A stretch of 64,000 bases of DNA, taken from Raillietiella orientalis (lineage: Eukaryota). Positions 20,503 to 64,000 of the stretch are shown here, in pieces. The notes beneath the pieces were generated by a model that had not been told where the DNA came from, made no database searches, and saw only the letters and a program-made list of their open reading frames with translations. The stretch spans positions 62,001-126,000 of the forward strand of contig JAYWIR010000074.1 in the NCBI GenBank assembly GCA_036172245.1, written 5' to 3'. The position numbers were made by a program, and so were the translations under genes. The first letter of the stretch is position 1, and every line of letters begins with the position of its first letter.

Positions 20503-21578
20503 CACGTTCGAACGGTAGTGCCTGGTTGCAGGAAACCGTTCGAACGTGGGGACAGTTCGGAATGCAACGCTCCCCACAGGGACGAAGGTTCCTGTTTGGA
20601 GGTTACAGAAGTTGCACGCTTTGTGAGTTCCTGGAGGATCCAAAGAAGAGAGCGTGGGCATGAAGAACCCCCCTTGCTGCCGCGCTGCCCTACCTGATGG
20701 AAGATCTGGACAGCGATGTTGCGGCGAAGTGAGAGGTTACAGTTGCAATCTTCGGGAAGGAGAAGAAGATAGGAGAGTGGAAGGCGGGTTAGCTATCTGA
20801 CGCTGCCACCCCGAGTATGCCTTCTAATAGACTTCTTCGCTGGGGCGCGCTGCTTGACGTTCCCATCGAATGTCTGAAGTGGCCCCGGTACATATGGACA
20901 CCTTCACTGTCCCCTTCAAATGGCAGTAGTTGGCTCTCCTGGTGCGGCACTGGGGACTCTTCTGCAACGCCTGCCGACGCCAATGGACCTGTGGAACGGT
21001 GGACCTCAATTGCGTCCGGTGTGGGGAACGGGATTCCCTTCCCTACCTGCTTTTGGATCGTGTTGCCCTTTGGCCCCTTTGATTCCGCTTCGCCGCGGCC
21101 ATTCGAATCCCCTCCGACAACCCCAGGGACGCTCTGAAATCCCTCTTCGTTGCCGACGCCCTTTGGCCAGCGGCCTTGTTAGCAGCCCTGTTCTGCCTAC
21201 GCGGGATCGTCGCCGCCTGGAGCAAGGCTACGGGAGGACCACACGACCAGGGTGTTATCCAGCCAGCCTCCGAATTCCTGAGGAGGGCGTCGCGATGGCG
21301 TCACCCGGATCCAAGCATACAGCATGAGCTTGCCGGCATCCTGCAAAGGATGGAATGGCTCCACTAGCTACAGTGATCCCTTCCTGGTCGATCTCAATCA
21401 TTCTTTTCTTTTTGTTTTGTTTCTTGTTTTTTTCCTCTTTCCCCCTCCGCCGTGGTGGACCGTACCTTTCTGCGAACTCTGTGTTTCTTCGTTCGTTGCT
21501 GGGCAATGGTCCAGCCACTGCACTTCTTTTTTAAAGTTTATTGTTTCTGTAAAGGCCCCAGGAAAATCCGGGGGAAAA
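20503..21578 (+). mobile_element. Element H (famH): 3' part of a LINE
   Basis: Collinear with element O (62430-63519); zinc-finger remnant; terminal box ccgggggaaaa 21568-21578. Confidence 0.9.
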
Positions 21579-22095
21579 TCGAACGCCTTATCGTCTGCGA
21601 GCGCTAGGGTTCCCTTCCCCTCCCGGGGATACGTTTCCAGCCCGGCATGCGGCCCCAATGTTGGGTTGCCGATTTTTCCTTTCCCTTTCTATTGTCTCCT
21701 CTGCAAGTGCACCCATGTGCTTGCTAAGAAGAGGTTGGCATCCATACTTTGCCCGGGAACAACATTATTCTGCTCCGGGCTAATTACGGTTTCTGTTACC
21801 TGTCCCAGACGCGAAGCGCGTCGCCCTGCTAGAAGCTTGTCGTCCGTATTCACGATGGTGATCGGACGCCAGTTCTTTAAATCTCTGAGGTATCCCCCTT
21901 TCGGAAGAAGCCTCACTCTGGCTGACCGAAACGAGGCGGGAACATCGCCTTTGTCTCCGATCAGCCTTATCAACTGAAGCAGCAGGGGTGCCAGCTCTTC
22001 CGCGAAGCTCTGAAGGAACTCCGCGGGCAAGCCGTCTTCCCCTGAAGTTCTACGCTTCTTGAGATTTTGATACCGGCGAGAATTTCGTCGCTGGT
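21579..22095 (-). mobile_element. Element I (famC): internal RT fragment from TSDEIL to KAFD
   Basis: ORF 21689..22120 (GLPAEF, LLPKGG, NWRPITIVN) is nearly the same as C and L. Confidence 0.9.
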
Positions 22096-24340
22096 TTGCC
22101 ACCCGGATATGCCGGGGCATTTAATAATCTAATCTTTACAGAATTAGTTATTAATCATTAAACAGTTTGTTGTGGGAAAACACTCGGCTTTTCTACGCTA
22201 GCAGACGTGTCGGGAGCGGATTCCTGAACCGGCAAGGTCCTCTCCCGAGGCGCAGGGGAATGGAAACCTGAAAAAAAAAGAAACAAAAAGAGAAATAATA
22301 GGGAGGGAAGCAGTTATATGGGGGAGCGGGAAGCAGGGGAGATATCAATTGTAGCCTGGGTTGGGGCTCGGCATCCTATTCAAAATGCAGACAAGTTCTG
22401 TTGTTGTGATGGGAGGTAGACGCTACAATTCCGCCGTCTCCTAAGAGATCGTCGTCCAGTGGATGGCGTCCCTGCATCTTGGGCCTCTTCTTCTGGCGTG
22501 CACCCTTTGCACGATGCCGCGCACTCAGCAGACGATTCCTAGAGATGTAGCGGGGCGCAGGCCCTCACGCAGAAAGAAGTGACGGAAAGCTTCCTTCGTG
22601 ACGTCTACTGGAATATGGTGGATTGGGCGATTCTACTCCAGAGTCCAACCAGGGCGACATACTCGAGGGTAAGAGGCGGAAGTTCTCCCTTTTATTGCAC
22701 TCCACGCATAGGGCATCCACGTTCCCCAGTGTCCAGTGAGACAGGCGTGCTCTCCTTAACAGTCCCCTGTGCAGAAATAGCAACGCCGTATCCTGCCACT
22801 TTAACGGAAGGGTGCCGCAATCTCAACACGCAGGTGGCCACTTTACCTCCCCCGGAAGTATACCGAGCAGCTCTCCCCAGCGTTGAGTTTTTGAGACAAA
22901 CACTCGGGCTGGTTACGTTTGCTAGCTCCCGAGTCGTCCACGCTTTTAAAAGTTTTTTCCTTCCTTAGATGATGCAGGACACTTTCCACATTGCTCCTTC
23001 GCTGCTGCTCTCAATGTTCTCCCGGGAGCATAGAACGGGGGCTGGAGGAGTAAACGAAGACCACAGAAGCATCCTGGGAGTGTAGATAATCTCCTGCAGC
23101 GGCAGTCGAACGTACGGTCCTCGACGTAGGGAGCGTAGGGAGTTTATTCCGTTTCGCTCAAGTTGTTGATCTTAGCCCACGCAGAGACTGACACCTGGAG
23201 CCAGGCAGTGCAGTTCGCGGGGAGGCAGGAGATCCAGGTATTCTCCCTCATCAGGGCGACCATCTGGCGCAAATGAAGGCCACAGTTGGAGAGGCTGTGC
23301 TTGTAGGCCACGAGGATCGAGGACAATCCTTCGCAGCCAGTCGCTCTTCTGGCGAGGAGCCGTGCCGGATCGCACCATTGCGTCATCCATAAGCTAGCCG
23401 CAAGGGCTAACTTTCGAAGTGTTGTTTGTAGTTCGATGCTCTCCAACGTAAGGAGGCCCAAGCCACCATCCCTGCGTGGAGCGCACAAGTCTTTCAATCG
23501 GACTTGCGACCTCGCTGTGCCCCAAAGGGCAGTCCTCAAGAGGGCTTCGGTCCGTCTCTGTATGATGGCAGGGGCAGGGCAAACAAAAAGTAAGGGGCGA
23601 AGGAGGGGGGCCGCGAACGCGTTCGACACCGCGGCCCGCTCCTGCAAGTAAAACTTTCCGTTCCGGAACGGGCTGATCGCCAACTCCACCTTTTGCAGGC
23701 GGTCGGACCAGGCTTCTGATTGATAGAAGGCGCCCAACGGAACGCCAAGGAACTTGAAGCTCCTTCCCATGGAGATCCCCAAGCGGATCCAGTCTGACCG
23801 CCCGGCCCACGCCGTAGTCGAAGATGTCGGAACAATCATGGATTTTTCCCTGTTCACCTCGAGGCCCGTCCCGCGGCGCAGCAACTCAATTCAATCTTCG
23901 AGCGCCGACGACAGGGTGGACCCGGGGAGCAGGAGCAGAAGGTCGTCGGCGTAGACCGACACGGCAGTCGTGCCGGCACACGAGCTCGCCAGGGTTGCCA
24001 GAGTCTGCCTGTATGCCCTCGAAGTAGCTCGAAGTAGATGCTAAAGAGCAAGGGGCTCAGACTGTCACCATGTTTTATGCCACGCCGAACCGGCACGCCG
24101 TACTCTCACCGCCCGCTGAAAGTGATGTTGATTAGAGCGAAGCGACAGCAGGAGCGCAGGAAAGCCCTGAAGACGGCCAGGAATCCCAAGCGTTCCAAGA
24201 GCTTCAGGAGGTGTTCCTGGTCAACGCAGACGAACGCTTTACGCATATCGACTGTGACCGCAAGGGTTACGGGCTCGGCTCTTCCACCAAGGGCTTTCTC
24301 ACCCTCGTCAGCGGAGCGACAATGAAGAATGCGCCGTGAT
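22096..24340 (-). mobile_element. Element A3 (famA): 5'-truncated LINE, RT to 3' end
   Basis: VDMRKAF, HGDSLSPLLF, YADD, FKFLGVPLG (23144..23884); terminal box at 22096-22106; 5' boundary approximate. Confidence 0.9.
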
Positions 24341-24379
24341 TCATGTGTAGTGGCGTATGCTTAACCGTTTTAGGTTCAG

Positions 24380-24630
24380 GGCCGCTTTCAGTGGACGTGT
24401 TGCAAAACGCGCGACCTTGCGCAATGGTTTCGAACTTTCCAGCTCAGAGGCGAGTTCGCCGACATCGAAGGAGTGAGTAAGTCAGAGTTTTGCGTAATCC
24501 GTAAGACGTTCGGGCATCTCAAAAAGAGATGCGTAGACGCACTATGACCCACTTGTGGCAAGAAGGGTGATACCAAAGTGGTGTGCCCCAATAACGTCGC
24601 TCCGCCACCGTCGAAATCTTCCCTAGAAAA
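24380..24630 (+). mobile_element. Old ORF1 zinc-knuckle fragment (famE)
   Basis: Translates FCVIRKTFGHLKKRCVDAL*PTCGKKGDTKVVCPNNVAP, matching ORF1 of E and K. Confidence 0.85.
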
Positions 24631-27600
24631 TAAGGAATTCTTACTTTGCATTAAGTTGGCATTAAAGAATGCACAAAAATAAGAAAAAATTAAAGTTTTC
24701 TCTACAGAATGGATTTGAACATTTCAAGTTGAAATGCATTTTTTATTTTCGCAAGGATACTTAGAAATTCAGACCCCTGTTCTCCTGGATCAATCTACCT
24801 AAAATTTTGACTTTCCAAACGAGTGTGTTTATGTCTCTGTGAAGACTAGTGAATGGGTATTCGGAGGTTACCAGAAAGTAAGTAAAGTTACCGGTGGCCT
24901 GGTATTGGTTGCGAGGATGAAAAATGAACAGTTGGTGTATTGATATCAAACGCATTTTTGTACATTAAGAGGTTTTGGTAGAAAAGCTGTAAGCTTGAAT
25001 AAGTTCTACAGTTGAGTCCATGGCATCAAGTGGGAATTAGGGTATGAGGATGATGGGACCATTTTAGAATGCCTAGGAGAGAATTTTTTCTGTGGTGGTG
25101 ATGATGAAACGATGTGGGTTGAATTTTGAGATTTGTGCTTCTATGAGTGAAGGGAGAGGAAATGATGCGTTTCGTTTCCACGTTGCGTGCATTGGATAAG
25201 CCATATTGCAGAAATGTGATGGATGGAGATAGTTGTATGGAAGGTCGCAATGGGATGGTAAATCAGAAAGGTTCGGAGAGGAGAGTAGGTGCCGAGAATG
25301 TTTATGTGCAGATGACAGGAGACAAGAGGGTCCAAAACAGAGCAACGAAGACATTGGGAGATACTTCAGAGAAGTCATCGGAAAGAAGAATCGCTAACAG
25401 ATTGTCTCTGCTCACCTGAGTGGTGTACGCAGGGCGCACGAAAACTTGCCATCGCCCCTGGAATCCCGAGATGAAAATAACTTGGTGAGAAGGAGTGGAT
25501 TTATGCCGTCGTGATCCATCAAAAATTTTTCTTAACTACTTCCTTCAGAACACATTCGTTGCGACAATTCTTTCAATTCACCGTGAAGACGCCTACGATG
25601 CATCCTCTGTGGGAAGTATGGAAGCTCCAGGAGACATGCTTGCGATGTTCTACCTGCATGATCTGCAGGAAAGCTCGCACGTTTCAAGTGGAAACTCGAA
25701 TTGGGAGCATATCGTTGCAAGAACTGAGGTGCCTGCTGCAGTAGCCTGACTCAGCCGTTGTGATTTCCTGAGTGTTGTTTTCAAACCTGGCTCCGAACAC
25801 ATGAGATTACTGGAGACGCATCCTGAAGTTTATATTCACCCACAGTTCTAAGAGTAGTCCACGTACGGCTCAAACTTCTGGCTCATCTCAAGATTGCAAT
25901 TCTGAGTATGCAGGCTCAATACTTTACAGAAACACATAACTTTGGTTGTTTTCAAGTGTTACAAAAGCTAAAGCACTTATGATTTGATTTCGCAGATGCA
26001 ATTCCAGATTGCATACAAAAAAGCAGGAGAAGGTAGAAAGCGCTCATCTTAGATTTAAATGAAACTCAAGAAATTTGAAAGCAATTATTCTCAAGTTTTC
26101 TGTGCAGATTATGATCACCATTCGCATACAAGTGACACAAGCTGCAGCATTCGCCTTTCTCGTAACAGTTCACGTATTTTCGGAGATGCTCGGCAGCAGT
26201 GTAGGGCCGTGACTGCTTCTGCATCGCGGATGTTATCCTAGCTGGTCAGCTTCGTTCCCTTCCGTCCATTCATTCTTCGCTATTGAGCTGCTTGCCTCAG
26301 GCTGCAGATTCTGGAAACTCACCCATCGCCGCGTGTGCTTTACAACGGCGAAGCCTCGAGTTCGCTCCCCATTCATCGAGCAATGCGCTGTGCTTCTGCC
26401 GAGAAATATCCTTGTAGGGAGCCATCAGTTAAACTCATCTGAAAGCTTTCAGTAACAGTACTGATTTCTGTGCATGAACAGGTCAGATGATCAGGTGACA
26501 TTTGACTCGCATGCACCGCGCTTGCGACCTGGCTTTAATGTGTGCACTGCAGTTCGTGAGGACAAGAAACGAAAGACACCGACCTAATGGTCTTACGTTT
26601 GAAAGCTCTGCTGATTGATGGGCGTCTTTGGTGGTTCCTCTATTTTAGGAAATGAGAATAAATGAGAACGAAAAACTGTTTATTTCTTCACTACAAAGAA
26701 AAAAATGATAAGTCTTTCTCTCATTATCAGTTGCTTGCATGGTATTCTTCGGGAGCGTATTATACGAAGTCTACACGAAAGGAAGCACCTGGCGTGAATT
26801 CCAGCCAGCATGAGGAGTGTTTATTGAAACTGCACGTTACACTGAACGGAGTTATTATTGACATGTGATCGTCCAACTCTATGACGGAACTGGAATAAAT
26901 AAAGTTAGGGTTATAATGAAAAACATGAACTTTGAAAATGAAGGCTCTCTATGAATGGTAGTTTATGTGCTTTTATTCCGTGAATTCTGTGAACGCAATG
27001 GATGATTCTCATGAGAAGTTTGGATTAGGGCTTTAACATTTGCGTCTCTGGAACTGTGTTGAGATCAAGAAAAATTGTTATGTGCAGTTTGCCACCCCGA
27101 GCCACCCAATTAGGTTGATAATCGTTGCGAGGCTCCATTGCCTTGCAAGTTTATCAAAGGTGATATAAAAATCACGAAAAGACAACATCGTTGATCATCG
27201 ACATGCTTTTATGCCTTTCAAAATGCGGAAGATGGAAAGCACCGAGTTGCGCGTTCATACTGTGATGAAAATCGCATTTAGACGCAGCACAGATGTCCCC
27301 GTTTGAATTGCATGTCGTATTTGTGAGGGAACTAAGCAACGTCCAGTCTTAGATGCCGAAATGGAGGCAAAGCACAGTCTCTTACCCAACTATAGGTGTG
27401 AATGTGCAAGTAGTGTAACAGGGAGTTCCCATTAAGGAAACTTTAACATACTGCGGGAATCCGTCGTCAGTCTGACAAAATCGATATGGCATTTCTCAGA
27501 GCGTATTGTCATCTTACCGTGAAATCGATCGAGCATCGTTCGGTACGGTCTGTTCTCCATAAATTAGGTCCCCATCGTAGCTTGCAAGCATCCAGAGACG

Positions 27601-29530
27601 TACTTCGAATTTCGAGGATTTTCATTGCACAGTTTCCAGTGAACTTCCGAAATTTCAAGTGATCCCAGTTCTCGTGGGGATTAAGACTGTTTGCGGCAGG
27701 CATGCTGATTGCCAAGAAAAGAACTGAGGCCTGCAGAAGCAGCTGAAACGCGTCATTTATCTCTTTGCAAAGTCTTCTAACATGTTGCATGAACCATGGA
27801 AGGATTTACGATACGGGTTACCAAAAGAACCCAATTGCCATGCACCCACCTCGATTCCCTACGCGCGTGGGAGTCTTCGACGGAGGCGTAGAACCTTTAT
27901 TCGCATAGCAGCCAAGCGTTTGCACCTCAGCAACGCAAGGATTTCAGCTAAGACATGCACTTTTTCGTCCCTGCACTTCGGAGTCTCCTACGAACCCATC
28001 CCGAGATGCACCTTCCTCACAGAAGCCTTCCCATGTTTTGCGTTTCACTGGTAAGGCGTTTCGAGCATCGGACTGCTTGGCTATGAATCTGCTTGTCGTG
28101 ATGGCTTACCTTCTTCAGTATTGGTCCCGTGAGTGCACCTTCGACATTAGCCACAGACATCAATAAGAAACGCCCTTAAACACACTTCTAGCTCATGGTG
28201 ATGCAAGAGATTAACAAAGATGAGGTTAGCCCGCATCTCACGGTGCTACCTCTGAGTAGTGGCAACGCGCGCGCCGCGGATCGAGAAACGCTTTGGAGAA
28301 CCAATCCACAAATAAGGACCGAGCTGTCACCTGTAACGAATCGCGGTTGGCAACCCTGAAAGTAGGAGCCTCCGACTGTGCAAGCATCCCAAGATGCAGG
28401 CCGAAGAGCATGGATTCGCTTTCATTGTGTCGTTCAGGAGGGAAGGAGGAGGACAAGCAGTCAACCAGCCGAAGCTGCGCTCCCATGCGCTCGTTGCTCT
28501 GAAGAGTGGCCAGGAGGCTTTTTTCCGTCCGCCTGACTGAAGAGTAAGGAATACGGAAGGCTCTTACCATGTGCATCCTGAGAAGAAACATTTTGTTTGA
28601 TTTCTTGTGCATTGCCAACAGATGCCTACTGTACACTCCGATGAAGCAGCAAGACGCCACGTACACTGGAAAGGTGAACTGAGAAGTAAGAGCTGTTTCC
28701 AGAGAATAAATGAAGATTTCGCCGATGTACAAGTGTTTCCGGCTACACGATTAGGTCACCTCATATGCAGTTATCGCGAAATGCATAAACCTGGACGCAA
28801 GTGCTGGAAAAAAAAAACAGGCATCATCTTCACAGATGTCAATCACATTTTCTAAGATTTGTTTGTTCTTTGTTGGAGAGAATTCTCGCAAATGTTTCAG
28901 GTCCACAGCTGCATTTTGCTGCGCAGTTGGTCAACATTTATATTAGCGTGGTCTATGCACAGCACTGTTCTCACACGTTCCGTGAAAGCAGCACCTCATT
29001 CACAGCACTCCCGAATAGAAGGTGAGCAGCGGACGAGGGGATTTCTCCCTTACGTAGAGAGAACATATGTTTTCCAGATATGCGTATTTTGTGGTGCATC
29101 ACATAGATTTTAAAGATTTTACTGTTTCGGAATTACTTTAGCAGATTTGCTTCGCTGAATGAGATTCCGGTGAAAGAAGCGAATCAGTCCGTATTGGGAT
29201 CCGCTTCCTTTGTGCCCTCATGCAGTTTCTTTAAAGATATCGTAATGTTCTTCGAAGCATACAGTCTTACAAGCAAATCATTCTACTGTGAGGCCTTACG
29301 TTCGAAGGAGTCCTTCGTTCTTCTAGCTCTTGCTGAGCCAGGTCTCCTTTGAATAGTAGCAGACCAAGTGCTGCGCAGACCGAAGTGATAAATACCTTCT
29401 CCGTCGGGACTTCCGTCGATGGATTGATGATTCTTCTCGATGACCATAGACCTCTCATGTTTGTTTGTTTTTTCTTCCACCACTTAGGCAAAAGCTTTTC
29501 ACAGTCCGGCCTGCGCTAAGAGAAACACGT

Positions 29531-29977
29531 TCAGCCGGTGGGGTAGTGGTTCTTCCGAATGGAGGGAGGTGCGGAAAGAGCTAAGAGCCGAGGAGCGGGG
29601 GAGCTGGAGAACGCTGCAACTCCACATTCTCGGGCAATGGGATACGCTCTGGTGGTTGGGAATGTTGAGTCGTGCTCTATAAGAAGCGCCTTTTCACCAG
29701 GTTGTGCCCGAGACTCCAGCGTGTTTCTCGCCCTCCCTGTGGCCGATCCCCCAGGGTGAGCAACGGCTTTTAATCCAAGAGTGACCACGATAGCGAAAAG
29801 AGGTTTTACATTACGGATGACCCTTGAACGTGAATAGACTCTGATGCAAATTTCAACAGTTGGGCCTGACGGATTCCCTGTAGCAAAAATCGTAACGGAG
29901 ACGTCTCCAGGAGCAGAGGTTGCTACGCCGAGCAGGGATAAAAACATGAGCTCGCTGATTAGAAGTTTTTTGTCCAT
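29531..29977 (-). pseudogene. Possible start of a host secreted-protein gene or pseudogene
   Basis: ATG at 29977 gives MDKKLLISELMFLSLLGVATSA, which resembles a signal peptide; no recognisable domain. Confidence 0.25.
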
Positions 29978-32949: not shown

Positions 32950-33560
32950 CAGGGGATTAATACTAGGTGCACATAGAGTTCCCGTGTTCCAATTGTAGAA
33001 TTGTGTGTTGCGCGCTGGAATGGTGGACACAGTATACTTACGCTGGAGAGATTGGAGCTTCAGCTTGAGTTCAGAGAGCTTGCCTTTGTGGTGAAGTAAA
33101 GGACCACGCCTTGGTGAGCACAGTAAGAAGTGTCTCTCTGGAAGAGCGCCCTCATGCAATGTACTTTCGCCGATTCCCGTACGAAGGAGATTATTTTGAG
33201 GTTATGCGGCCATCAGCTGATGCAAATGGTTTCTTTGATTCAAGAGAACACCTGAATCTCCCTAATTTTCGCCAACTGCACTGCCATGATCCACGAAACA
33301 GTTTCGGTGTGCGAAAAGATTTACGGCTGTAGCGGGTTGGATACGCCTGGATCCGGAAAAAGAGGCGCTGTCGACAGCCAACACAGGAAATGGGATGCTT
33401 AGCCCACGCAAGCTGCTGCGGATCTCGTTTACACCACTTGTTGCAGAGCTGCGCTCCCTAATCTCGAGTGGTGCTACTCAAGTACCAAAGTGGGAAGTAG
33501 CCTGCCTCCTTTAAAGGAGGAAGAAACTGCACGAAGCGGGACGAGTGGCGTCTTCAGTGG
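32950..33560 (+). mobile_element. Heavily decayed famA LINE relic in the spacer
   Basis: PRVPIVELCVARWNGGHSILTLERLELQLEFRELA, HQLMQMVSLIQENT*IS and SPRKLLRISFTPL align with element A. Confidence 0.8.
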
Positions 33561-39310: not shown

Positions 39311-39342
39311 AAAATCCGGCTTTAGGACTAAAGCCGGATTTT
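39311..39342. repeat. Perfect 15-bp inverted repeat with a 2-nt spacer
   Basis: aaaatccggctttag-ga-ctaaagccggatttt. Confidence 0.95.
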
Positions 39343-51013: not shown

Positions 51014-54000
51014 TTGTCACCCGGGTACCCCCGGGGCATTTATTTGTAAACTTTACATGCGTGGTACGAGGCCCCACCACGGCCGTAAACAGAGGACCTG
51101 TCGGGACACCGGGACGCAGCTCGGCGTGGCACTCCCCGACAGCGAAGGGAGTTGTGGATAAGACAAAAAGAAAAATAAAAAGAAACAAACAAAAGCAAGT
51201 TGGAGGGCAGGGAAAAGATCACTGGTCGCTGTGAGGAAAGTCCATATGTCGAACGAAGCCCTTGAGGTCTGTCTGCATATTCCCCAGTTAAGGCCATTCG
51301 GCAGCTCTTCGCAAGAAGCGTTGGGCATACGGGATGACATCCCTTGCATGTGGACCCACTCTTACGTTGTTGGCATCCCTCCATGCCGCCACGATGCCAC
51401 CGACGCAGCACAAGGCTGCGATGGCTGCGGCTGGCTGCAGTGCGTCCTTCACGAAGAGAAGTCGAAGAACGTCTCTGGGGGTGCTGCCCGTAGGGAGCCC
51501 GAGGGTCGTCCCGAACCGTTCCCAAAGGGGTCGGAGGGCAGCACAATCCACAATAATTTGGGGAAGCGACTCCCGCTCCCCGCACCTTGCACACGCAGCA
51601 TCCACAGCTCCCCTCGTCAAGTGGAAGCGGCGCGGATTGCAGGGTAGACCCCAGTGCAACAAAAGCAACGCCGACTCTTACCACTTGAGGGGCAGGATCC
51701 TGGATTCTTTCATCACCGGGGCTACTTCAGCTCATCTCTGGGGATGGCGAGCAGCTCGTCCCATATTACTAATCCTTGCGGCTGGACGCTTGGGGTCTTG
51801 GCGTCGGTCAGTTCTCCTGTTGTCCAGACGCTAATCAACTTCTCGCGTCCCTCGATGCAGCAGGAGACTTGCCACCTTGGCGTCCGGCTGCTGTGAAGTG
51901 CTCTCCTCAGGAAGGGCAGCGCCGTAGCTAGGCAGGTTGTCTCTGCCCACGTGCATCTTGCTAGACTCTCCAGGAGATTCCCCAGAATGCAGCGGACGTA
52001 GGAACTGCATTGGAGACGATTAGAAGTTTCGTGGCTCCTCCGATTAACCACTGCCCACGTTCCAATATTCTCCTCCAGCCAGGCGGGACAGTTGGCAGGG
52101 CAGCAAACCATCCACCTGTTCTCCTTGGCCAATGTTGCCATGCGTCCGAGCACTAGGCCGCATCTTCGCGTCTTCCGGCCACGGCTCAGAAGAAAATACG
52201 CAAGTCCATCGCACCACGACAACCGGCTGGCCAGGAGGCTGGCCGGAGTGCACCAAGGGGTGCTCCACATCTTCGCTGCGATGTCGAGGGTTAGCCACCG
52301 CAGCTGCTTCTCCACGCGCTCCAGAGTCAGGACGCCAAGACCGCCGTCCCGACGCGGTGCGCACAAGTCCTTCAGAGGGACTCGGGGCCTCCTCTTGCCC
52401 CAAAGGGCGATACGGAGGAGGTTCTTTGTCCTCTTCTTCGATTCCACGGTGAAGGGGGCAAACAAAAAGCAAGAAGCGGAGGATGAAGGCCGCGAAGGCG
52501 TTCAAAACCGCGGCTTATTCCAACAAGTGAAACTTGCCTTCCAGGAACGGGCCGATCGCCGTCTCGACTTTTTGGAGCCAGCTGGACCACGCTTCTGCAG
52601 GGGAGTAGTCCCCCAAGGGCACACCAAGGTACTTCAAGCACCTCGCCGTGGGGATCCCCTGACGGACCCAGTCCTGCAGCCCGGCCCACGTTGCACCTAT
52701 TGGCACAACCGACGACTTCGCCCTGTTAACCTAGAGTCCGGTCCCGCGGCTGAGCAGATCGAAGAAGTCTCCGACTGCCTTTGCCGTGGTGGACATAGGC
52801 AACAAGAGCAGAAGATCGTCGGCGTACCCAGCTACTACAGGCGTGCCTGGGCACGAGCTCGGCAAGGGGGTTAAAGTCACCCTGTGCGCTCTCAGCACCA
52901 ACTCAAAGTAGGTGCTGAAGAGCAGGGGGCTGAGGCTACCTCCCTGCCTTATGCACCGCTGCACCGGCACGCTATACACCTTGTGACCGCTGAAAAAGAC
53001 GGTAATCATCGCATTCCATTAGCGAGAGCGCAGGTAGGAAATCAGGGAGAGTGGAAACCCCATGCGACCCAAAAGCTCCAAGAGGAGTTCCTGGTCTACA
53101 CAGTCGAACGCCTTGTGGAGATCGGCTGCAAGCGCTAGGGCCCCATTCCCCGTCCAGGGGTATCTTAACAGCCCATCTGGCGGCCCCAATGTTGGGTTGT
53201 CGACTCTCCCTATCCCTTTCTTCTCTCCTCTCTGCATGTGCACCCATGTGCTTGCGAAGAAGTGGTTGGAATGAATACTTCGCCCGAGAACAGCATAAGT
53301 CTGCTCCGGGCTAATTACGGATTCTGCCACCTGCCCCAGACGCGAAGCCCATAGCCCTGCTATCAACTTGGTGTCCGTATTCACGATCGTGATCGAATTC
53401 CAGTTCTTTAAATCCCTGAGGTCTTCCCCTTTCGGAAGGAGCCTCACTCTGGCTGACCGAAACGAGGCGGGAAGATCGCCTTCGTCTCGGCTCAGCCTCA
53501 TCAACTTAAGCAGCAGGGGTGCCAGCTGTTCCGCGAAGCTCTGAAAGAACTCCGCGGGCAACCTATCTTCCCCTGGAGCTTTACGCCTCTTCAGCCTTTT
53601 GATACCGGCGAGAATTTCGCCGGTGGTAAAAGGCTCGTCGAGGCTTTCCATCTCCTCCTCCCCTATTGCCGGGGCGCCATCCGGAAGCAAGCGCTGAGAG
53701 GCGTCTCGATCCGGGGGCTCCCTGGCGTAAACGGAGGAATAGAAACTCCGCACGAGATGCCGTACCGACGCCGGGGACGAACATTCCCGGCCCTGGTGGT
53801 CCAGCAAGCTGGCCGACTTGGATTGCCAGGCTTGGCGTTCGGCCCCGGCGCGGTACTCGGCCAGGCGACGGACATTAGGGGTTCTTTCGTACCAATGAGC
53901 CTGTAAATTGGCCCGATGGTTGCAAGGATCCTTGCCGAATCAGGCAAGCAAGTGTTTTAGGGGGAGCTGCTCCCAGAACTCCCGGACCGAGGCCTTAAAA

Positions 54001-54355
54001 AGGGCCAGAACCGTAAGATTCTGGAGCGTGACGCCTCTCAGAATTTGCAAAGGTGTTCCTTCGCATCTGACAGTCGCTTTTAGTCCCCCGAAAGACGCCA
54101 ATCCCTAAATAACGGTCCCTTGTCGCGAGGCCGCATCTCGGAAATTAGCCAAGAATGGTGCGACAGCGTCGACGCAATCTTCCTACATTTGCCGACCCGT
54201 GAACATAGGTCAGCTACGGGGAAGAGTGTGGTCGATGCTGCAGTCCATTCACCTCTCTCCCTCGAACAAGTTGCGCGCACGCATGGAGGCGCACAACTCG
54301 TTCATCGCGTTCTCTTGTGTTTCTGGCTCACCTGTTAGCAGACGGAGATTGAAAT
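51014..54355 (-). mobile_element. Element L (famC): ORF2 from APE (D)FN to 3' end
   Basis: ORF 53019..53807 (KAPGEDR, DLHKAFD), YADD, zinc finger; terminal box 51014-51024; closely similar to C. Confidence 0.95.
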
Positions 54356-56521
54356 TTATCACCCGGTCACGCCTCGGCGTTTATTAATAATAATAAACTG
54401 GTCAGACACAATGTCCTCAACCAACAGAACGACAGAGAACATAGAAAAATTACCGGCACGCAGGCGTGGGAGGAATGAGGGGAAACAATCAAAAATCAAA
54501 AACTGGAGGGAAGGGTAACAAATTTTTGGATAGGCTCCGTACTCACGGGGATTTATACGATGAGCACCTGAAATTTTCCGGAGCCTATAGGGACGCGGGT
54601 GTAAAATGAAAATACAAAATTAGTTCATGGAGGGTGAGGCAATGATCACCGGGTTGTCCGCTGCTGAGGGTGTGTAATCAGGCGGTGTATTGCGGCGAGA
54701 TTCCTTTTTGTCTCTTCTGTCAAATGAGGTTATCTAACGCATGCTCCTATATAGAAGGATGCTTTGCTGATTACCTCTTGGTGCTGTCCGTTGATTGCCA
54801 ACGCCTGGCGGACGGAAACTATCGCGCGTTTGCAACCGATGGTTGCAATCCTTGCGCTTAGGGACAGCCCGCTCGGCGTGAAGAACCGTCGCAGCAAGTC
54901 TCTTGCGCTGTCCACGGGATGCATTAGTGCTGTTGCCAGCCTACGGCACAGTCCTTGTAGGACACTGCAGTCCAGAAGTAGGTGCGGAATCGACTCCGAC
55001 GATCCGCACCGAACGCAGTTCGCAGACGTAAGTCCCCCGGAGTCACGATGCCAACGCTCGTTGCACTGAAAACCCCAGTGAACAAAAAGCAGCACGGCTT
55101 GTTTCCAAGCAAGGGGGAGCAGCGAACTGTCAATACACTGTGGAGGGACTACAAGTTCTTCGGGGGGGGCAGCAAGTTCTTCTGCCCACCGGAGGAGTCC
55201 CTTTGCAGTAACACGAGGAGTGGCGGCGTCCGCCTACTCACTCGTCTTCCAGGCGCCAAGGAGTTTGGTTTTTCCCGCTATCGTGCAACTCGCCGGTAAG
55301 TAACTGTCGTTTCTCGCCCTGCGGGCAGACAGCGCTGCGGCAAGAGGCGTGGCAGCCAGAGTAGAAAACTTCACCTCGTCCTGCAGTACTTCTTCCAAGG
55401 ATCGTGGAAAATATTGGCGCAAAAGGCGAAGATCTTCAGGGCGTATTTCTTGGAACGCCGTCCAGGATTCAACAGACTCCTGCCGCCCAGCTTGAAAGTT
55501 CATTGGGCGGCAGGAGATCCACGAGTGAGCTTCCAGAAGTGCGGTCAACTGCCGCAATGGAAACCGAAACCCCGCTTCCTGTATTGAGTGCCCGGCAAAA
55601 GCAAGAGAAATCCTCCGCTGCCGTCGCATCTCCGCAGGAGAATGCCAGCTGACACACACAGAAGGGATGTCCATAGCTGGGCACACAGTGCCAGCAGTCG
55701 GAACTGCACCTGCAGTCCGATTCGCTCCATTGTCAGTAAACCCAAAACAGCAGCCCAACGCGGAGCTAACAAATCTTTAAGGCGGATCCTGGATCTCGCC
55801 GGACCCCAGAGAGCGTTCCTGAGCAGGCGTTTAGCCCGCTGTTTCGCCGTATAGGGGGACTCCAAAACAAAAAACAGGGGACGGACGAGCGGGGCCACAA
55901 AGGTGTTCTAAATAGTCGCCCGTTCCTGCAAGGTGAACTTGCCGTTAAAGAACGGTCTGATGGCCAAATCTGCTTCCCGAAGACAGTCCGCCCACGCTTT
56001 GCCTGCGCCGAAAGCACCCGACGAAACGCCAAGGTACTTGAAGTACCCGCCCGTAGGGATCCCCAGGCGGATCCAGTCGGACTGCCCCTCCCACGACGTA
56101 CCCACAGGAACGATCGCGCTCTTCTCTCTGTTCACGCTCACGCCCGCTCCCCGACGAATCAGGTCGAAGAAATCCTCGACACTGGACGCCGCGGTGCACA
56201 TGGGGTGCAGAAGAAGCAGGTCATCAGCGTAGGCGGCCACGGCAGGCGTTCCCGTGCAGGAGCTTGGCAAGTGAGACAGCGTCAGCCTGTATGCTCTTAG
56301 CACCAACTCAAACAAGATGCTTCATAGCAACGAGCTTAAGCTGTCGGCCTGGCGGATGCCCCTACGAACGGGAATACCATACACGCGGCAGACGCTGAAA
56401 GTGATGCAGTCTAGCGCGTGGCGCCAGCACGCGCGCAAATATCAGCAGGAGTTGCGCCGGGAACCCAAGGCGTTCCACATGCTCTAAAAGCAGCTTCTGG
56501 TTTACGCGGTCGAACGCCTTG
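54356..56521 (-). mobile_element. Element M (famF): 3' half (KAFD to 3' end) of an element whose upstream part is P
   Basis: YADD (55908..56315), CVRCGSSESIPHLLLDC; terminal box ccgggtgataa at 54356-54366. Confidence 0.93.
56510..56521. repeat. Target-site duplication, left copy
   Basis: tcgaacgccttg versus tcgaactccttg at 63520-63531. Confidence 0.8.
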
Positions 56522-59500
56522 CGTCCTTCACGGTGGACGTGTTTTCTCGGTGCTCCTCGTGCCAGGAAGTCTCCTTCAGAGCGAGCGTCGTATGTTTCAG
56601 AGGTGGATCAGGCCGCGATGCCTGACGCGAACATCAGGGATGGCCAGGGGGCAGCGGCAACGCCGTCCCAAGAGGAGATGGAGGTGGGGGCATTCGCCCC
56701 CACAGAATCGGTTCCCGCTGCAGGGCGGGCGTGGAGCGCCGTTGTGTCGGCGCCATCGCCTACAGCCGCGGCGGAATTGTCGGCCAATGTAGAGGAGGGG
56801 TACAACCCCTCATTGTTCTACAAGGTAAGCAATTTATATTCTTTAGAGAGCGCGCGCGCATTTTCGAAAGGCATGCGCGCTCTCGATGTGAAAGAGGAGG
56901 AGCTCAGCGGTATGACCATTCGCAGCGGGGTCAGTACGTTGAGGTCATCTGCAAACATGCAGAGCTGGCACAAAGACTGCTTAAAATCTCCTTGTGATGG
57001 AGACGCGCAGGCTCCTCCCCACTACGGCGGACCGCAGCGTAGTGCTCCACCTGTTAGGCGTAACTGCGCGAATGCGCAAAGAACAGGTTCGCGCAGCTTT
57101 GAAACAGTTCGGAACGGTCCAAGCGCAGTGGACGAAAGTAAGTCCTTTCGAGGACTACACGGGGCCGCAACACGGCCTCACTGCTGCGCGCGTGACCGTT
57201 CGGGAGGGCTGCACTCTTCCCCACAAACTGGTGGTCGAAGGCGAAACCGTCGACTTCTGGTATGTGGGGAAGCCGAAATACTGTGGCTTCTGTAATACGT
57301 CGGGCCACCTTAAAAAGAGGTGTACCAATGTGCAGTGCCAAGTATGCGGAGCCATGGGACACACGAGGGAGGTGTGCCGTAAAGCAGCAGTGAGGGTGGT
57401 TTTTAAGAGAATCCTTAAAAAACGTGCCCCGCTTCTGCAGAAAAGGCTGGCAAGGAAGCTGCCGCGAAGGCTGTGCTACCCGCGCCCAAGGCCCAGGCCG
57501 CACCCGAGACCCCGGCGAACAACGCCGAACAAGTCGAGGGAACAAGCAGGGAGTCTAAGTGGCAGGTATCTACGGCCATAAAATCAAAGAAGGAGAGGAG
57601 GATGGAGAAAAAGCTCGCGTATTGCCAGAAAAAACAGCAGGCAAGCGAGCAAATTAAAGAATGCAGCGTTGTCGTCCAGCGTATTCCTCACCGCTGCGAA
57701 AAAGAACTCGTCGCTACCGACGACAACCCCTCTGTTGACTCTGTCAACAGCGAGGGGAGCGAGCCGGCGGCGGCGTCCGTCATCGACACCACCATCGATG
57801 ACGTAGCCTTCGCGCGAGCCGCGGAGGAGCTGGAAGCCTCGTTGCAGCCAGAACCCTCCAAGGCTGGCAAGAAGGATGTAAAGCGTCCGGCCTCCCCTCA
57901 GGAGTCCCCCACTTCCGACCCCGAGTTGAAGACCGGAAGCGCAGCCTCCGTTTCCACGGCACCGCGCAAGAAGGCTGGACTTAAGTCCACAAAGCCAAGG
58001 AAGCTCGTCTCCCCCGTCGAAGGGGAAGAGATGGCTTCCGCAAGCGAGGGTGCCATGAGCGTGGGAAAATCTCGGGACCCATCGCCCGAGAGACTTTCAC
58101 GCGCGGACACGGAGGGATGGAGGGAGTAAAGGCCGAACAGGTGGCTCAGTTGCCTGAGAAGGCCGAAACCCCCATGGACATCCCGCCTGGCTCGCAAGAG
58201 GAGGGCTCCATCACACCTTAATCTTCCCAGCAGTAATGCCGGGAATCTCCTCCCGCCGTCGTCTCCGCATCGCCGTTTGGAACGTGAACGGCATGACAGA
58301 CACCGGTAGGAGACCAGACATGGCCGCCCTTCTGGAGTCCTACGACCTTGCGCTGCTGCAGGAGATCCACGTGATCTCTGCAGAACAAGCGCAAGAGATC
58401 GAACGGATCTCCGGAGGGCGGCTGTGGTACAGGTGTGGGAGAGCGAAAAGTTGCGCTGTCGCCTACCTGCTTCGGCCAGCCGTCGAGGCCGCGGCTCGGG
58501 GCGTGGGGTTCGACGATCACGGTCGTGTCGGCCAGCTGACTCTCAGGTGGTCCAAATCGATCGATCTGATCGTCACGAACGTGTGCGCACCGAGCGGCGC
58601 GGACCTGATGACCAGGAGGGCAAGGAAAGACTCTTTCTTTGCCCTCCGGCAAGACTGGCTGACCGAAGCAGGCGTGCGGGATGCCCATCTGGTTGCAGGC
58701 GATTTCAACGTTCGCCTGAAACCAGATGGGCAGAATTTCGAGCGTGACCTGGTCAACGAGGTGTGCATGGCGGTGCACACCTGTAAATTGTTGGACAGTG
58801 CACCGAGGATGGAAGACAGCATTGACCACGTGTTTCTTCACGAGCACCTGTGCCCTCACGTGGGCAGGCGCCGCAAGTTACCGTGCGTGCTGTCGGACCA
58901 TCGCCCGCTGGTCCTCGAGATCCATCCGCGCGACAGGGGCCCCCCTCGTGAGCGTTGCGTCTCCCAGGGGACTGGCTGGAGCTCCCGGACGCGGCGGAAC
59001 ATCAGCACACGTTCATACGGAGCTTCAGACCGCGAAAACTCCAGGATTGGGACCGCTTCAAGCGGTCGGTCCTGGAGTTCTGCGACCAGTTCCTTCGGCA
59101 CCGCCTACCTACGGGTTTTGGGACCGGGGTCCGTAACGAACAAGCCTACCTGCAGGCCGGTCGTTACGCCAGGACCCACGACATCCGCAGGCTGGCAAAT
59201 TACAAAGCGGGAGCCGAGAAGCAAGCCTGGCAGTCCGGATCGGCCAGCTTACTGGACGATCAGGGCCAGGAGCACTCGGCACCTGCCCAAATCCGCGACC
59301 TGCTGCGGAGTTACTACTCCTCCCTGTATGCCAGGGCACCTCCGGAGAGGAACGTATCACGAATCCTGCTTCCGGAAGGCGCTCCAGCGAACGGGGAGGA
59401 GCAGACAAAGACCATCGACGAGCCTTTCACGATGGACGAGATCCTCTCGGCCATCGGAAAGCTCAAGAGGCGAAAGGCTCCATGAGAGGACCGCCTGCCC

Positions 59501-62051
59501 GCGGAGTTTTATCAAACTTTCGCGGCTGAGCTTAGCCCCCTGGTACAGCAACACACCTTGCTGATACGCGAAACATGTGACGTTCCCGCCTTGTTTCGTT
59601 CGGCAAAGGTGCGGATCCTCCCTAAAAAAGGAGATCTGAGGAGCATGAACAACTGGCGTCCGATCACAATAGTGAATTCGGCAGCCAAGTTGATAGCCAA
59701 GATGTGGGCAGAGCGTTTGGGACGCGTTGTCAACATCGTCATCAGCTCGGAACAGACATATCCTGTTCCCAAGCGAAGCATGGAGGCGAACCTGTTCCAC
59801 GCTTCCACCTGGCTAGAGCTCCAACATGAAAGGAGCTTGGTGCGCAGCCGGAATTCCGGTGCGTGCGCCGGCAAGGGGTTGGATGGTCGGGTGGGGAAGG
59901 GAGCACTTGCGGTCGCAATCGACTTGCGGAAAGTATTCGATTGCGTCGACCAGAATCTCCTTCTAGAGCTTCTGGAACGCTTGGGCTTCTTGGACTCATT
60001 AGTGGCCTATCTGCGCTCCTGCTGGCGCGAAGCGCTCATCAATGTTACTTTCAGCGGGCAGACCGTGCACGGCGTGCCGGTGCGGCGTGGGATCCGGCAG
60101 AGAGACAGCCTGAGCCCCTTGCTCTTCAGTACCTACTTTGAGTTGGTACTGAGAGCGTACAGGGGAACTCTGGCGCATCTGCCGCACGACTGTGCCGGTA
60201 CGCCGGCCGTTTCAGCATACGCGGACGACCTTCTGCTGCTGCTCCCTATGTCCACCCCGGCTGCGGCGGTCAAGGAGTTCTTCGACCTGCTGCATCGGCG
60301 AACCGGACTTACGTTGAACACGGCGAAGTCGTCCGTGATGCCAGTTGGTGTGGCGTGGGCAGGGCAGCAGGACTGGGTCCGTCTGGGTATCCCCACGGTG
60401 AGGTGCATCAAGTACATCGGTGTGCCGTTGGGGGACTTCTCTCCTGCGGAAGCGTGGTTCAGCTGCCTCCAGAAAGTCGAGACGGCGATCGGCCCGTTCC
60501 TGGAAGGCAAGTTTCACTTACCGGAACAAGCCGTGGTTTGGAACGCCTTCGCGGCCCCCAACCTCCGCCCCTTGCTTTTTGTTTGCCCCGCCCCCGTGGA
60601 ATCAAAAAAGCGGACTGAGGACCTCCTCCGCATAGCTCTTTGGGGCAAGGGGAGGCCCCGAGTTCCTTTGGAGGACTTGTGCGCTCCGCGTTGGGACGGC
60701 GGTCTCAGCATCCTGACGCTGGAGCGCGTGGAAATCCAGCTGCGATGGCGGACCCTCGCCATCGCAGCGAAGATGTGGAGCACCGCTTGGTGCATTCCGT
60801 CCCGCCTCCTGGCCAGGCGTGTGTTCCGCTGCGAAGGACTCGCATCGTTTCTTCTGTGCCCTGGCCGGAAGATTAGAAAATGCGGTCTAATGCTCGGCCG
60901 CATGGCATCCCTGGCAAAGGAGAACGACTGGATGCTTTGTTACCCTGCCAACTCCTATGCTTGGCTGGAAGAGACTGCTGGCACCTGGGCGAAGCAGAAC
61001 CAAAGGTGCGAAGACCGGATGAACTGCCTGCGAGTCGGCTTATACGCCCGCCGCACTCTTCGTGAAATTCTTGAATTTCCACCGAGTTGCACGTGGGCGG
61101 AAGGCACACCCCTTGTTACGGCGATGCCCTTCCTCCAAAGGGCGCTTCACGGAAGCCGGAAGCCAAGGTGGCAAGTCTGCTGCCGTATCGCAGGCAGAGA
61201 GAAGATGATGAGCGGCTGGACCATGGGAGAGTTGACAGATGCAACGACCCCTAGTCTCCAGCCGCGTGGATTAAGAAGATGGGGCGAGCTGCTCGGCATT
61301 CGATTGGATGACCTGAAGTGGCCCCCGGTTCTACTTGGATCCAAGATTCTCCCCCTGAAGTGGCAAGAATCGGCGCTTCTGTGGCTGCATTGGGGTCTAC
61401 CCTGCATCGCGCGTTGCTTCCACTGGACGCGGGGAAGAGTAAATCCTGCGTGTGCCAGGTGTGGGGAGCGGGAGTCGCTCCCCCACCTCTTAGTCGAATG
61501 CCCTGCCGTCCGGATTCTTTGGGATCGTCTGAAAACGGCCCTCCGGATACCGGATTTGGTGGCAATGTTGAATGTATCTTCAGTCTTGTCTTCGTGCGGG
61601 ACGCTCTCAGTCCAGCCGCAGCCCTGGCAGCACTTTGCTGCATTCGTGGTATCGTGGCGGGCTGAAGTGATGCCGAAGATGAAGACTGCATCGTGAGGGA
61701 CGTCATCGAGTATGCTTCGCGCTTCCTGCAGAGAGCTACCCGATGGTCCCATCTAGGAAAGCTGAAAATGGAACTAGAAGGCATCCTGCAAAGGATGGGC
61801 GCTCCCAGCAGTTTTCTGTGATCCCTTCCCGGCCCTCCAAACTTTTTTTTTTTTTGTGGTTTGTTTTTCTATTTTATTTTATTTTTGTTTTTTCCCCCTT
61901 CCCCCTCCACTGCCGAGGAGAGCCACACCGGGCTGCGTCCCGGTGTCCCGGCAGTTTCCGCATTCGGTGGCCGTCAGTGGGGCCTTGTATTACGTTCTGT
62001 ATTGACCGTTGAAATGTTTTTAATAAACGTCCCGGCGTATCCGGGTGGCAT
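56522..62051 (+). mobile_element. Element N (famD): full-length (~5.5 kb) LINE, best preserved copy in the window
   Basis: ggacgtgtttt 56535; ORF1 knuckles; TAATG 58234-58238; APE; 712-codon RT stretch; stop ~61820; terminal box ccgggtggcat 62041-62051. Confidence 0.96.
58236..61820 (+). pseudogene. ORF2 of element N: APE endonuclease, reverse transcriptase, CCHC zinc finger; a few frameshifts and stops
   Basis: WNVNG, QE, GDFN, IDH, SDH; NWRPITIVN, DLRKVFD, QRDSLSPLLF, YADD, KYIGV; CARCGERESLPHLLVEC. Confidence 0.94.
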
Positions 62052-63519
62052 CGCCCCCTGCTTTTTGTTTGCCCCATCAGAGAGAGAATTAAAAAGCGGA
62101 CAAAGGACCTCCTCCGTATCGCTTTTTGGGGCAACGGGAGGGCCCGAGTCCCCTTAAAGGACTTGTGCGCTCCTCGTCGGGATGGTGGTCTAGGCCTCCT
62201 GACGCTGAAGCGGCTGGAACTTCAGCTCCAGTACCGATTGTCGGCACTGGTTCCAGAGTTGTGGTGCACCTGTTGGTGTCTCCGTGCACGTCTCCTTCTC
62301 CAGCAAGCCACCGGCAAGACGGGACTGACGTCGTTTCTTGCACTCCGTCGCCGCGTCAACCGATGCGGACTCCAGCTACGGAGGGTGGCTGCGCTGTACC
62401 GGGAAAACCCAGGATTGCTTACCTGTCGCCCTTTGAACGGTTGTGCCTGGTTGCAGGAAACCTTTCGAACGTGGGAACAGTTCGGCATGCAACGCTCCGA
62501 ACAGGAACGAAGGTTCCTGTTTGGGGGTTACAGAAGTTGCACGCTCCGCGAGATCCTTTAGGATCCTAAGAAGAGGGAGTGGACAGGAAGAACCCCCCTC
62601 GCTGCTGCGCTGGACTCCTTAGTGGAACATCAGGACAGCGATGCTGAGGCGAAGTGGGAGGTTACAATAAAAATCTCCGGGAAGGAGAAGAAGCAGAGAG
62701 AGTGGAAGACGGGCCAGCTAACTGATGCTGCGACCCCGAGTACGCCTCCTAATGGACTTCTGAAGTGGGAAGCGCTGCTGGATGTTCCGATTGAACATCT
62801 GAAGTGGCCCCTGATTCTTATGAACACTTCCATCCTCCCCCTAAAATGGCAAGAGTCGGCATTCCTGTTGCAGCACTGGGGACTCCCCTGCAACGCCCGT
62901 CGACACCACTAGACCTGGGGAGCGGTGGATCCCAATTGTGTAAGGTGCGGGGAACGGGAGTCCCTCCCCCACCTCCTAGTGGATCGTGTTGCCCTTCGGC
63001 CCCTTTGGTTCCGCTTTGTCGAGGCCATGGGAATCCCCTGCGGCAACCCCAGGGACGCACTGAAAGCCCTCTTCGCTGCTGACGCCCTTCGGCCAGCGGC
63101 CTCGTTAGCAGCTTTGTGCTGCCTACGCGGGATTGTCACCGTTTGGAGCAAGGCTACGGCAGGACAACGCGATCAGGCTGCCATCCAGCCAGCCTCCCAG
63201 TTCCTGAGGAGGGCGTTCCGATGGCCCCACCTGGATCCAGGAATACAGAAGGAGCTTGCCGACATCCTGCAAAGGATGCAACGTCCCAACTAGCAACTGT
63301 GATCCCTTCCCTTACCCTGCCAACTTTTTTTTTCTTTTTTGTTTTGTATTTTGTATTTCTTCCTTCCCCTCCTGCCGTAGTGGACCGTACGGGTCTGCGA
63401 ACCGGAGACCCGGCAGGCTCCGTGTTTGTTCGTGCGTGGCTGGAGCAATGGTCCAGCCACCGCACGTCTTTGTAAAAGTTTATTTTACAATAAACCCTTC
63501 GGATAAATCCGGGTGAAAA
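62052..63519 (+). mobile_element. Element O (famH): 5'-truncated LINE
   Basis: RPLLFVCP, LKDLCAPRRDGGLGLL, CVRCGERESLPHLLVD; terminal box ccgggtgaaaa 63509-63519. Confidence 0.93.
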
Positions 63520-63531
63520 TCGAACTCCTTG
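63520..63531. repeat. Target-site duplication, right copy
   Basis: Matches 56510-56521 at 11 of 12 positions. Confidence 0.8.
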
Positions 63532-64000
63532 TGGAGATCGACCGCGAATGCCAACGCTCCCGGCGTTCCGTCCTGCCGTCGGGGCCTGTTCTCGCCTGCG
63601 GCAGTGACTTTTTGAGCAGCCTGGCTTTGCTGCGCCACAACTTCCTGCAGCTGCATCCATGTACGCGCGAACAGCATGTTCCCTTCCATGGATTGTCCCG
63701 GAACGGCGTACGTTTGTTCCGGGCTCACCACAGATTTCGCGATACTTCCTAACCGCGCGACCGACAGCTTCGAAAACAACTTGACGTCCGAGTTCATCAA
63801 GGTGATAGGACGCCAGCTGTTAAGTTGACACAAGTCTCCGGCTTTCGGCAAAAACCGCACCTTCGCTGAACGGAAGGAATCCGGGACATTCCCGGATTCA
63901 CTCATCAGCGTCGCGAGTTTCAGCATCAAGGGAATGAGCTCCACTGCAAAGCACTGATAAAACTCTGCAGGAAGCCCATCCTCGCCTGGCGACTTTCGTC
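63520..64000 (-). mobile_element. Element P (famF): RT N-terminal part continuing beyond the window; upstream half of M
   Basis: KSPGEDG, SWRPITLMNSD, GTPGALAFAVDLHKEFD; reading continues into M at KAFDRVNQ. Confidence 0.92.

Follow-up and report, generated by a model that had tools for sequence, protein, structure and literature searches.

Two LINE copies without poly(A) adjoin the same antisense K-A-F-D codons of other LINE reverse transcriptases: a case for LINE-on-LINE targeting

Introduction

Long interspersed elements (LINEs) of the Tx1 and R1 clades, which carry an apurinic/apyrimidinic-like endonuclease (APE), have as their targets rRNA and snRNA genes, microsatellites, telomeric repeats and other transposons; Tx1L, for example, inserts into the DNA transposon Tx1D. 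R2, the LINE of 28S rDNA, has a restriction-like endonuclease and N-terminal zinc fingers, and in R2 biochemistry its reverse transcriptase (RT) jumps from one template onto a second RNA. The Zepp and ZeppL elements live in green algae, where they form one cluster per chromosome, at the centromere. In published accounts, transposons are counted among the known LINE targets and the early-branched, Tx1 and R1 lineages are given as the main target-specific ones (PMC4640811), Zepp clusters are described as richer in G+C than their surroundings (PMC3446292), and (A)n is listed as the 3′ end of both Zepp and L1-1_CR, its relative from Chlamydomonas (PMC3747384, Table 3). Here we describe a stretch of 64,000 nt from Raillietiella orientalis (contig JAYWIR010000074.1, positions 62,001 to 126,000; hereafter the window), in which a LINE lineage recognised by its 3′ module, famH, twice adjoins the K-A-F-D codons in the RT gene of other LINEs. 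All counts, 3′ ends and copies given below refer to this window.

Results

The window holds two LINE copies with the famH 3′ module, both on the plus strand: H1 (18622..21578, placed by the tblastn map, 3′ end ...CCGGGGGAAAA), which runs from APE residue ∼182 into the RT, and E2 (62053..63519, placed by the map and by self-comparison, 3′ end ...CCGGGTGAAAA), which is 5′-truncated at RT residue ∼361 and has 2 stops in 413 codons. A first-pass annotation of this DNA had claimed that famH inserted twice, in antisense, into RT KAFD codons, in an identical register and in different host families. At junction H (21578/21579) the sequence reads ...aaaatccgggggaaaa|tcgaacgccttatcg (...ccgggggaaaa|tcgaacgcctt), and at junction O (63519/63520) ...taaatccgggtgaaaa|tcgaactccttgtgg (...ccgggtgaaaa|tcgaactcctt). 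Both famH 3′ ends read ...CCGGGKGAAAA, without poly(A), and the antisense K-A/E-F-D codons of the interrupted RT adjoin them directly; translated on the minus strand, the flanks are in frame, as GTLALADD-KAFD at junction H and GALAFAVDLH-KEFD at junction O. The homology of the first host (host C) to the uninterrupted element C ends precisely at 21579 (equivalent to 53104), and that of the second (host F) to the uninterrupted element G precisely at 63520 (equivalent to 16433). By identity, host C falls with the B/C family (84%) and host F with the G family (72%). The three claims were borne out, with the host homology breaking at the exact junction base in each case.

In the well-preserved element E1 the equivalent stretch is AIDLRKVFD, which can be aligned with SIDAEKAFD of human L1 ORF2p (chain 8c8j_A); the famH target codons are therefore those of RT motif A. 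At locus 1 the antisense KAFD codons (AAGGCGTTCGA) adjoining the famH end occupy 21579..21589 on the minus strand, as located by translation and an 11-mer search; the same search found exact but unoccupied targets (AAGGCGTTCGA) in the RT of element G (16423..16433, plus strand) and of element C (53104..53114, minus strand). The 11-mer TCGAACKCCTT occurs 5 times against 0.12 expected, namely at the two famH junctions, in the left copy of the target-site duplication (TSD) described below and at the unoccupied sites in G and C. Likewise, CCGGGKGAAAA occurs 3 times against 0.11 expected, at the two famH ends and at one end of another family. Both junctions are precise to the base and have no microhomology shared between insert and target. 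The KAFD register was found in both of the two famH copies, which is the reuse of one target in one register that marks a target-specific LINE; by our arithmetic, two random insertions would hit the same base and strand of a ∼6-kb LINE consensus about once in 10^4.

Locus 2 retains both sides of its host. The 5′ part of host F, a G-family LINE, extends on the minus strand over 63520..64000, from the RT N-terminus to K-E-F-D, and runs off the window (72% identity to G 15951-16433; translation P0001). Its 3′ part lies on the same strand at 54355..56521; it begins at the KAFD codons and closes with the host's own 3′ end ...GGGTGATAAA (72% to G 16422-18074; frame KAFDRVNQKLLLEH). The two halves are equally similar to G (72.4% and 71.6%) and lie 7 kb apart. 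Because they overlap on G at 16422-16433, 12 bases are present twice, and comparison with G places the left copy (tcgaacgccttg) at 56510..56521 and the right copy (tcgaactccttg, 1 mismatch) at 63520..63531, with the consensus TCGAAC[G/T]CCTTG. The host reading frame is continuous across the site and no host bases are lost. The doubled 12 bp has the form of the staggered-nick signature of target-primed reverse transcription (TPRT). As the Asp codon of host F is GAC, there is no microhomology with the famH tail. The TSD that the first-pass annotation had reported at the second junction, as expected of TPRT, was confirmed; it flanks a composite, E1+E2, rather than famH alone. The annotation's reading of a real TPRT event into KAFD codons is supported.

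The other part of this composite, E1, is a full-length LINE of another 3′-module family with ORF1, APE and RT (56522..62052, plus strand; Pfam, tblastn map and aligned 5′ ends), whose ORF2 has one frameshift and an in-frame TGA. Its tail is joined directly to the 5′ end of E2. The 3′ end of E1 has the same tail type as that of copy A, whose flank differs, indicating a bona fide 3′ end. As the E1-tail|E2 junction is direct and lies inside a single TSD, we infer that E1+E2 entered in a single TPRT event, in which the RT, on reaching the end of the truncated famH template, switched to an E1 RNA at its 3′ end. At the other end of E1, 13 extra bases (cgtccttcacggt, 56522-56534) stand between the left TSD copy and its conserved 5′ start GGACGTG..., and the first five of them are the reverse complement of that start.

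From these features we consider it probable that the famH lineage, which has no poly(A), integrates site-specifically and in antisense at the motif-A K-A-F-D codons in the RT gene of other LINEs, by TPRT. The element ribonucleoprotein would nick the host-sense strand right after 5′-...AAGG(C)GTTCGA-3′; judging by the junction and the 12-bp TSD, this first nick would fall after ...AAGGCGTTCGA, following the second base of the Asp codon. The 3′-OH at the nick would then serve as primer for reverse transcription, starting from the final base of the famH RNA, ...CCGGGKGAAAA, and a second nick on the opposite strand, 12 nt off, would yield the 12-bp duplication seen at locus 2. Resolution of the 5′ side may take one of two forms, a 5′-truncated copy or an RT jump to another LINE RNA at its 3′ end. 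The insertion would split the host RT at its catalytic motif, and would thereby inactivate it. Neighbouring LINE lineages seem to follow a like logic, each in a register of its own.

In principle, a single ancestral insertion could have given rise to both famH junctions, through a segmental duplication whose copies diverged later. In favour of such a history, the window is rich in repeats, and at only 80% identity over ∼1090 bp the two famH copies are old. The hosts, however, are of different families. A B/C-family LINE is the source of host C, a 516-bp fragment (21579..22094, minus strand; identified by 84% identity and translation) that runs from just upstream of the RT to the KAFD codons, bounded by the famH end at 21579 and the 3′ end of element J at 22095; it is 84% identical both to 53104-53622 and to 6765-7265. 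Hosts C and F align with each other over 110 bp only, at 69%. Using exact coordinates, the famH inserts are 79% alike over their last 300 nt and the flanks 67% over their first 300 nt, and overall the hosts share 67–69% against 79–82% for the famH inserts. The 5′ extents also differ, H1 starting at APE residue ∼182 and E2 at RT residue ∼361 with the E1 tail just before it, and the left sides are entirely different, G|H1 at locus 1 and F-remainder|E1|E2 at locus 2. Because the hosts differ far more than the famH inserts and the 5′ sides differ, these comparisons exclude a single duplicated junction, and we regard segmental duplication as very improbable. An assembly artefact, with false joins at repeats, has even less to commend it: the region is a dense repeat, in which such joins may arise, but the junction appears twice with the insert side 20% diverged and the hosts unrelated, and there is no long shared word at the junctions that could mislead an assembler.

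The pattern extends beyond famH. Thirteen LINE 3′ ends were located; nine of them use one of four recurrent registers, and the ends of a, J, M and E1 are singletons. In class I, the ends of A (13201/13202, +), B (4654/4653, −) and C (51013/51012, −) adjoin antisense GG(A/T)TTCGGC in the APE–RT linker. They have TGRCAWC tails (TGGCATC or TGACAAC), and their hosts, Q, P and R, each keep the 5′ part only; inserts B and C are 86% alike and their hosts 65%. The two famH ends at antisense KAFD make up class II. In class III, G (18621/18622, +; 3′ end ...GGGTAAAAAA) and F (54355/54354, −; 3′ end ...GGGTGATAAA) adjoin, in sense, |(A)TTTCAAY, the APE catalytic GD|FN codons. In class IV, two K-family ends, K (48421/48422, +) and m (15676/15675, −), with the tail ...CCGGKTGACAAA, adjoin the 5′ terminus of the full-length elements R and Q. 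The latter head-to-tail pairs are compatible with targeting of 5′ ends, and a template jump of the RT at the 5′ end of an RNA explains them equally well. Class III could be a targeted insertion, a recurrent 5′ end with a template jump, or an old duplicated composite.

The target class tracks the 3′-module family. In the comparable part of the APE (residues ∼182–290), the class I copy A is 73–74% identical to E1 and H1 versus 68% to C, which is of its own class. The APE of A is thus closer to E1/H1 than to C, a hint that target choice may move with the ORF2 C-terminus or the 3′ UTR; targeting by action in trans is possible as well. RNA-guided targeting was considered and rejected, as the famH 3′ UTR matches the target flanks over 8–9 nt at most, a length within the shuffled distribution. 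As a tentative extension, somewhat doubtful at present, the window may house a guild of co-resident LINEs, each homing to its own fixed site in the coding sequence of fellow LINEs and with the choice of target residing in an exchangeable 3′ module, made up of the ORF2 C-terminus and the 3′ UTR, not in the APE. In such a guild famH would take KAFD in antisense, G/F the APE GD|FN codons in sense, A/B/C the linker GG(A/T)TTCGGC in antisense and K the 5′ terminus.

Several elements of the array meet in unusual ways. Head-to-head 5′-5′ junctions between oppositely oriented LINEs lie at ∼7690 (B/A) and ∼15757 (m/G). The arrangement P> <B A> <Q is a mirror, both of whose outer junctions are class I sites. 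B was ruled out as the remainder of host Q, being of a different family and having an intact site.

A number of observations weigh against site-specific integration of famH. The examinable copies are two, and in G and C the exact 11-mer target is empty; among ten RT copies that cover the site, two are occupied. No host remainder or TSD could be recognised at locus 1 within the window, where the unit G|H1 has other elements as its left neighbours. At locus 2 the TSD encloses E1+E2, and two successive insertions are possible. A verifiable TSD exists at one of the nine recurrent junctions, most of these lack a host remainder, and some 5′ ends are head-to-head. The missing remainders and head-to-head ends may reflect aberrant resolution in a dense array. 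In class III, the inserts (63%) and the flanks (64%) are equally diverged. Element a (1719/1720, +), with the same CCGGGTGAAAA tail, sits at a different antisense site, in the APE–RT linker at residue ∼375; it has another 3′-module family, 63–68% identical to famH and closest to K (72%).

Some of these points are shared with the main rival explanation, in which specificity is weak and neighbourhood does the rest: the element would be drawn to LINE-rich chromatin or DNA, in the way proposed for elements that seek out centromeres, and its endonuclease would prefer a short motif such as (G)TTCGA that the conserved KAFD codons supply in many copies, which would make two hits there no great coincidence. 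The sample of two, the unoccupied targets in G and C and the position of element a all agree with it, as does the presence of 37 GTTCGA sites in the window, 6 of them at KAFD. The expected frequencies do not: a preference for TTCGA only (155 sites, 8 at KAFD) would produce two KAFD hits with a chance of ∼(7/154)^2 = 0.2%, and a preference for GTTCGA with a chance of ∼2%. Moreover, three other lineages reuse an exact register, which a short-motif model does not predict. We therefore judge weak specificity unlikely, though it is the strongest of the rivals.

A further rival dispenses with the sequence-specific nick altogether and attributes the junctions to repair in a dense LINE array, with capture of cDNA or a switch of template at points where breaks or pauses recur in LINE DNA or cDNA; the registers would then be fragile sites and not a product of target recognition. 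The loss of the host remainder at most recurrent junctions, the head-to-head 5′ ends at ∼7690 and ∼15757, the recurrence of breakpoints and module exchanges at a 19-nt block near RT residue 361, and the direct joining of the E1 tail to an internal point of famH are what capture would leave. Locus 2 is, however, clean, with both host halves, a 12-bp duplication and no loss of host sequence, as staggered nicks predict, and both famH junctions are exact to the base; we find this explanation quite improbable. Antisense, site-specific TPRT at motif A is thus the reading that we retain.

The famH sequence belongs to an element of recognisable type. H1 aligns to APE residues 182–468 and to the RT, the first ∼181 APE residues being absent. 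Its famH module (20507-21578) is 80% identical to E2, and upstream of it the RT and APE sequence is 82–84% identical to E1 (82% for 19000-20501). Relative to E2, H1 has a 360-bp internal deletion at 20501/20507. Because the famH module at locus 1 continues upstream into RT and APE, famH is, on the evidence of these alignments, the 3′ module of an L1-like APE/RT LINE and not an orphan 3′ fragment.

These LINEs are mosaics (59030-62052, 10180-13201 and 18880-21578). E1, A and H1 share a linker/RT-N module at 81–83% identity; in their 3′ modules, E1 and A are 94% identical, H1 and E2 82%, and H1 and E1/A 65–68%. A block of ∼19 nt (CTTGCTTTTTGTTTGCCCC-like, RT residue ∼361, PLLFVCP) is kept at the DNA level across diverged families, at 60566-60590, 11722-11745, 20481-20501, 62056-62075, 46880-46900 and homologues. 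At this block E2 begins, H1 has its 360-bp deletion and copy A changes from 5′ to 3′ module.

Searches for relatives recovered little. A protein search with the E1 RT found one metagenome protein at 64% identity (P0002), all other matches being at 29% or below. Among read-through ORFs ending in KAFD-F-x-P-D, searched with the RT N-terminus of host F (P0001) as the query, there was no match at near lengths, and an exhaustive search with P0001 returned P0002 and the unrelated fish-like LINE proteins P0057 and P0058 only. An RT-alignment scan of metagenome contigs gave 4 loci, all 26–31% identical, and pattern scans of genome contigs (9 loci) and viral contigs (10 loci) gave only chance matches to bacterial or phage sequence, none of it homologous to LINEs. 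One DNA sequencing run (X1, share 0.14) contained related contigs, mostly less than 90% identical; one of them breaks off 7 nt beyond the KAFD junction, a second spans an F-like element that has no insert, and neither informs on famH flanks. Beyond P0002, no close relative of the lineage was found in the protein and contig collections searched.

The two loci lie in a nest in which non-LTR retrotransposons are densely packed on both strands, as seen by self-comparison and by a tblastn map for which the queries were the ORFs of E1, the best-preserved element. The nest makes up both ends of the window, where G+C is 55–60% versus 45–50% in the middle (24.4–40.7 kb), and outside this middle part the window is almost entirely LINE-in-LINE. 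The middle itself (24400-40700, 16 kb) contains a single short RT fragment at 32980-33529; it gave no tandem repeats, no Rfam match and no Pfam match in 16 ORFs, and its longest ORF looks non-coding.

In E1, Pfam identifies PF03372 (Exo_endo_phos) at 58158-59564 and PF00078 (RVT_1) at 59486-61696, and in a related copy a zf-CCHC knuckle in ORF1. The closest solved structure is human L1 ORF2p (E 3e-19), R2 proteins scoring far lower, and the database relatives carry RVT_1 together with PF13966 (zf-RVT). The translations of these LINEs have a C-x2-C...H-x4-C pattern, which we take to be the C-terminal Cys/His motif. Because of the APE and RVT_1 domains, the nearest structure and the zf-RVT-bearing relatives, the elements are best assigned, by homology, to the L1-like APE-type LINEs. 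The 12-bp TSD at locus 2 and the 5′ truncation of E2 and H1 agree with a LINE identity. A poly(A) or simple-repeat tail, usual in L1-like LINEs, is lacking: poly(A) is found at none of the 13 3′ ends, where no run of A exceeds 6. All 13 have instead a conserved TAAA-N-CCCGG-N4-CCGGGTG followed by 4–7 lineage-specific bases. This shared block, (A)ATAAA-like plus CCCGG-N4-CCGGGTG, lies ∼25 nt upstream of the terminus (for example 63480-63519, 62013-62052 and 4654-4693).

Two further ideas were rejected. For a conserved 3′ stem-loop, no more than a 5-bp CCCGG/CCGGG stem with little covariation is predicted, and we regard the feature as a block of conserved sequence rather than a proven structure. 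The −1 frameshift that seemed to be conserved between APE and RT proved to be an artefact of the E1 query, with its frameshift and in-frame TGA; element C has a single continuous ORF across the APE–RT linker.

Discussion

If famH inserts as proposed, this would be a clear case of transposon-on-transposon parasitism, in which the victims' need for a working RT keeps the target conserved and every famH insertion disables a competitor. If the wider pattern holds, it would provide a sequence-level mechanism for the formation and confinement of nests made of LINEs only, an example being the Zepp-type clusters that are thought to mark the centromeres of algae; LINE-on-LINE hyperparasitism alone would build and maintain LINE-only islands of the Zepp/centromere type, and conserved motifs of transposon enzymes would then be a safe target of an 'rDNA-like' kind. 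The elements would also be naturally retargeted APE/RT systems, whose determinants of specificity could be mapped by module swaps. With two copies in the window, the famH case is nonetheless striking, and LINE-on-LINE targeting of this kind can be tested.

Among the known systems, R2 resembles famH in its precise site within a conserved multicopy gene, in its 5′-truncated copies and in having no need of poly(A), and template jumping of the R2 type would explain the E1|E2 composite. The elements described here differ from R2 in carrying an APE domain, and R2 proteins score far below L1 ORF2p in the structural comparison. Zepp and ZeppL are L1-type LINEs that form nests almost free of other sequence, and the insertions here are likewise nested, in sequence that, like Zepp clusters, is richer in G+C than its surroundings (57–59% versus 45–50%). 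On the other hand, the elements here have no A-tail, unlike the (A)n of Zepp, and the available parts of the Zepp accounts describe no fixed register inside RT or APE codons.

The target-specific Tx1 and R1 LINEs share with famH the APE and a base-precise target in multicopy sequence that is used again and again. In famH, by contrast, the target is the protein-coding RT motif A of other LINE families, in antisense, and several co-resident LINE lineages each have an apparent site of their own inside LINEs. This likeness to Tx1 and R1 is one of target behaviour; by RT and APE, the elements here are placed only as generally L1-like. We do not file them as members of Tx1, R1 or Zepp, from the last of which they also differ in the A-tail. 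The full-text literature searched yielded no LINE with RT or APE codons of other LINEs as its described target. Site-specific LINEs, including those that insert into transposons, are already known, and the new aspect of the famH case is a fixed target in RT motif A of other LINEs.

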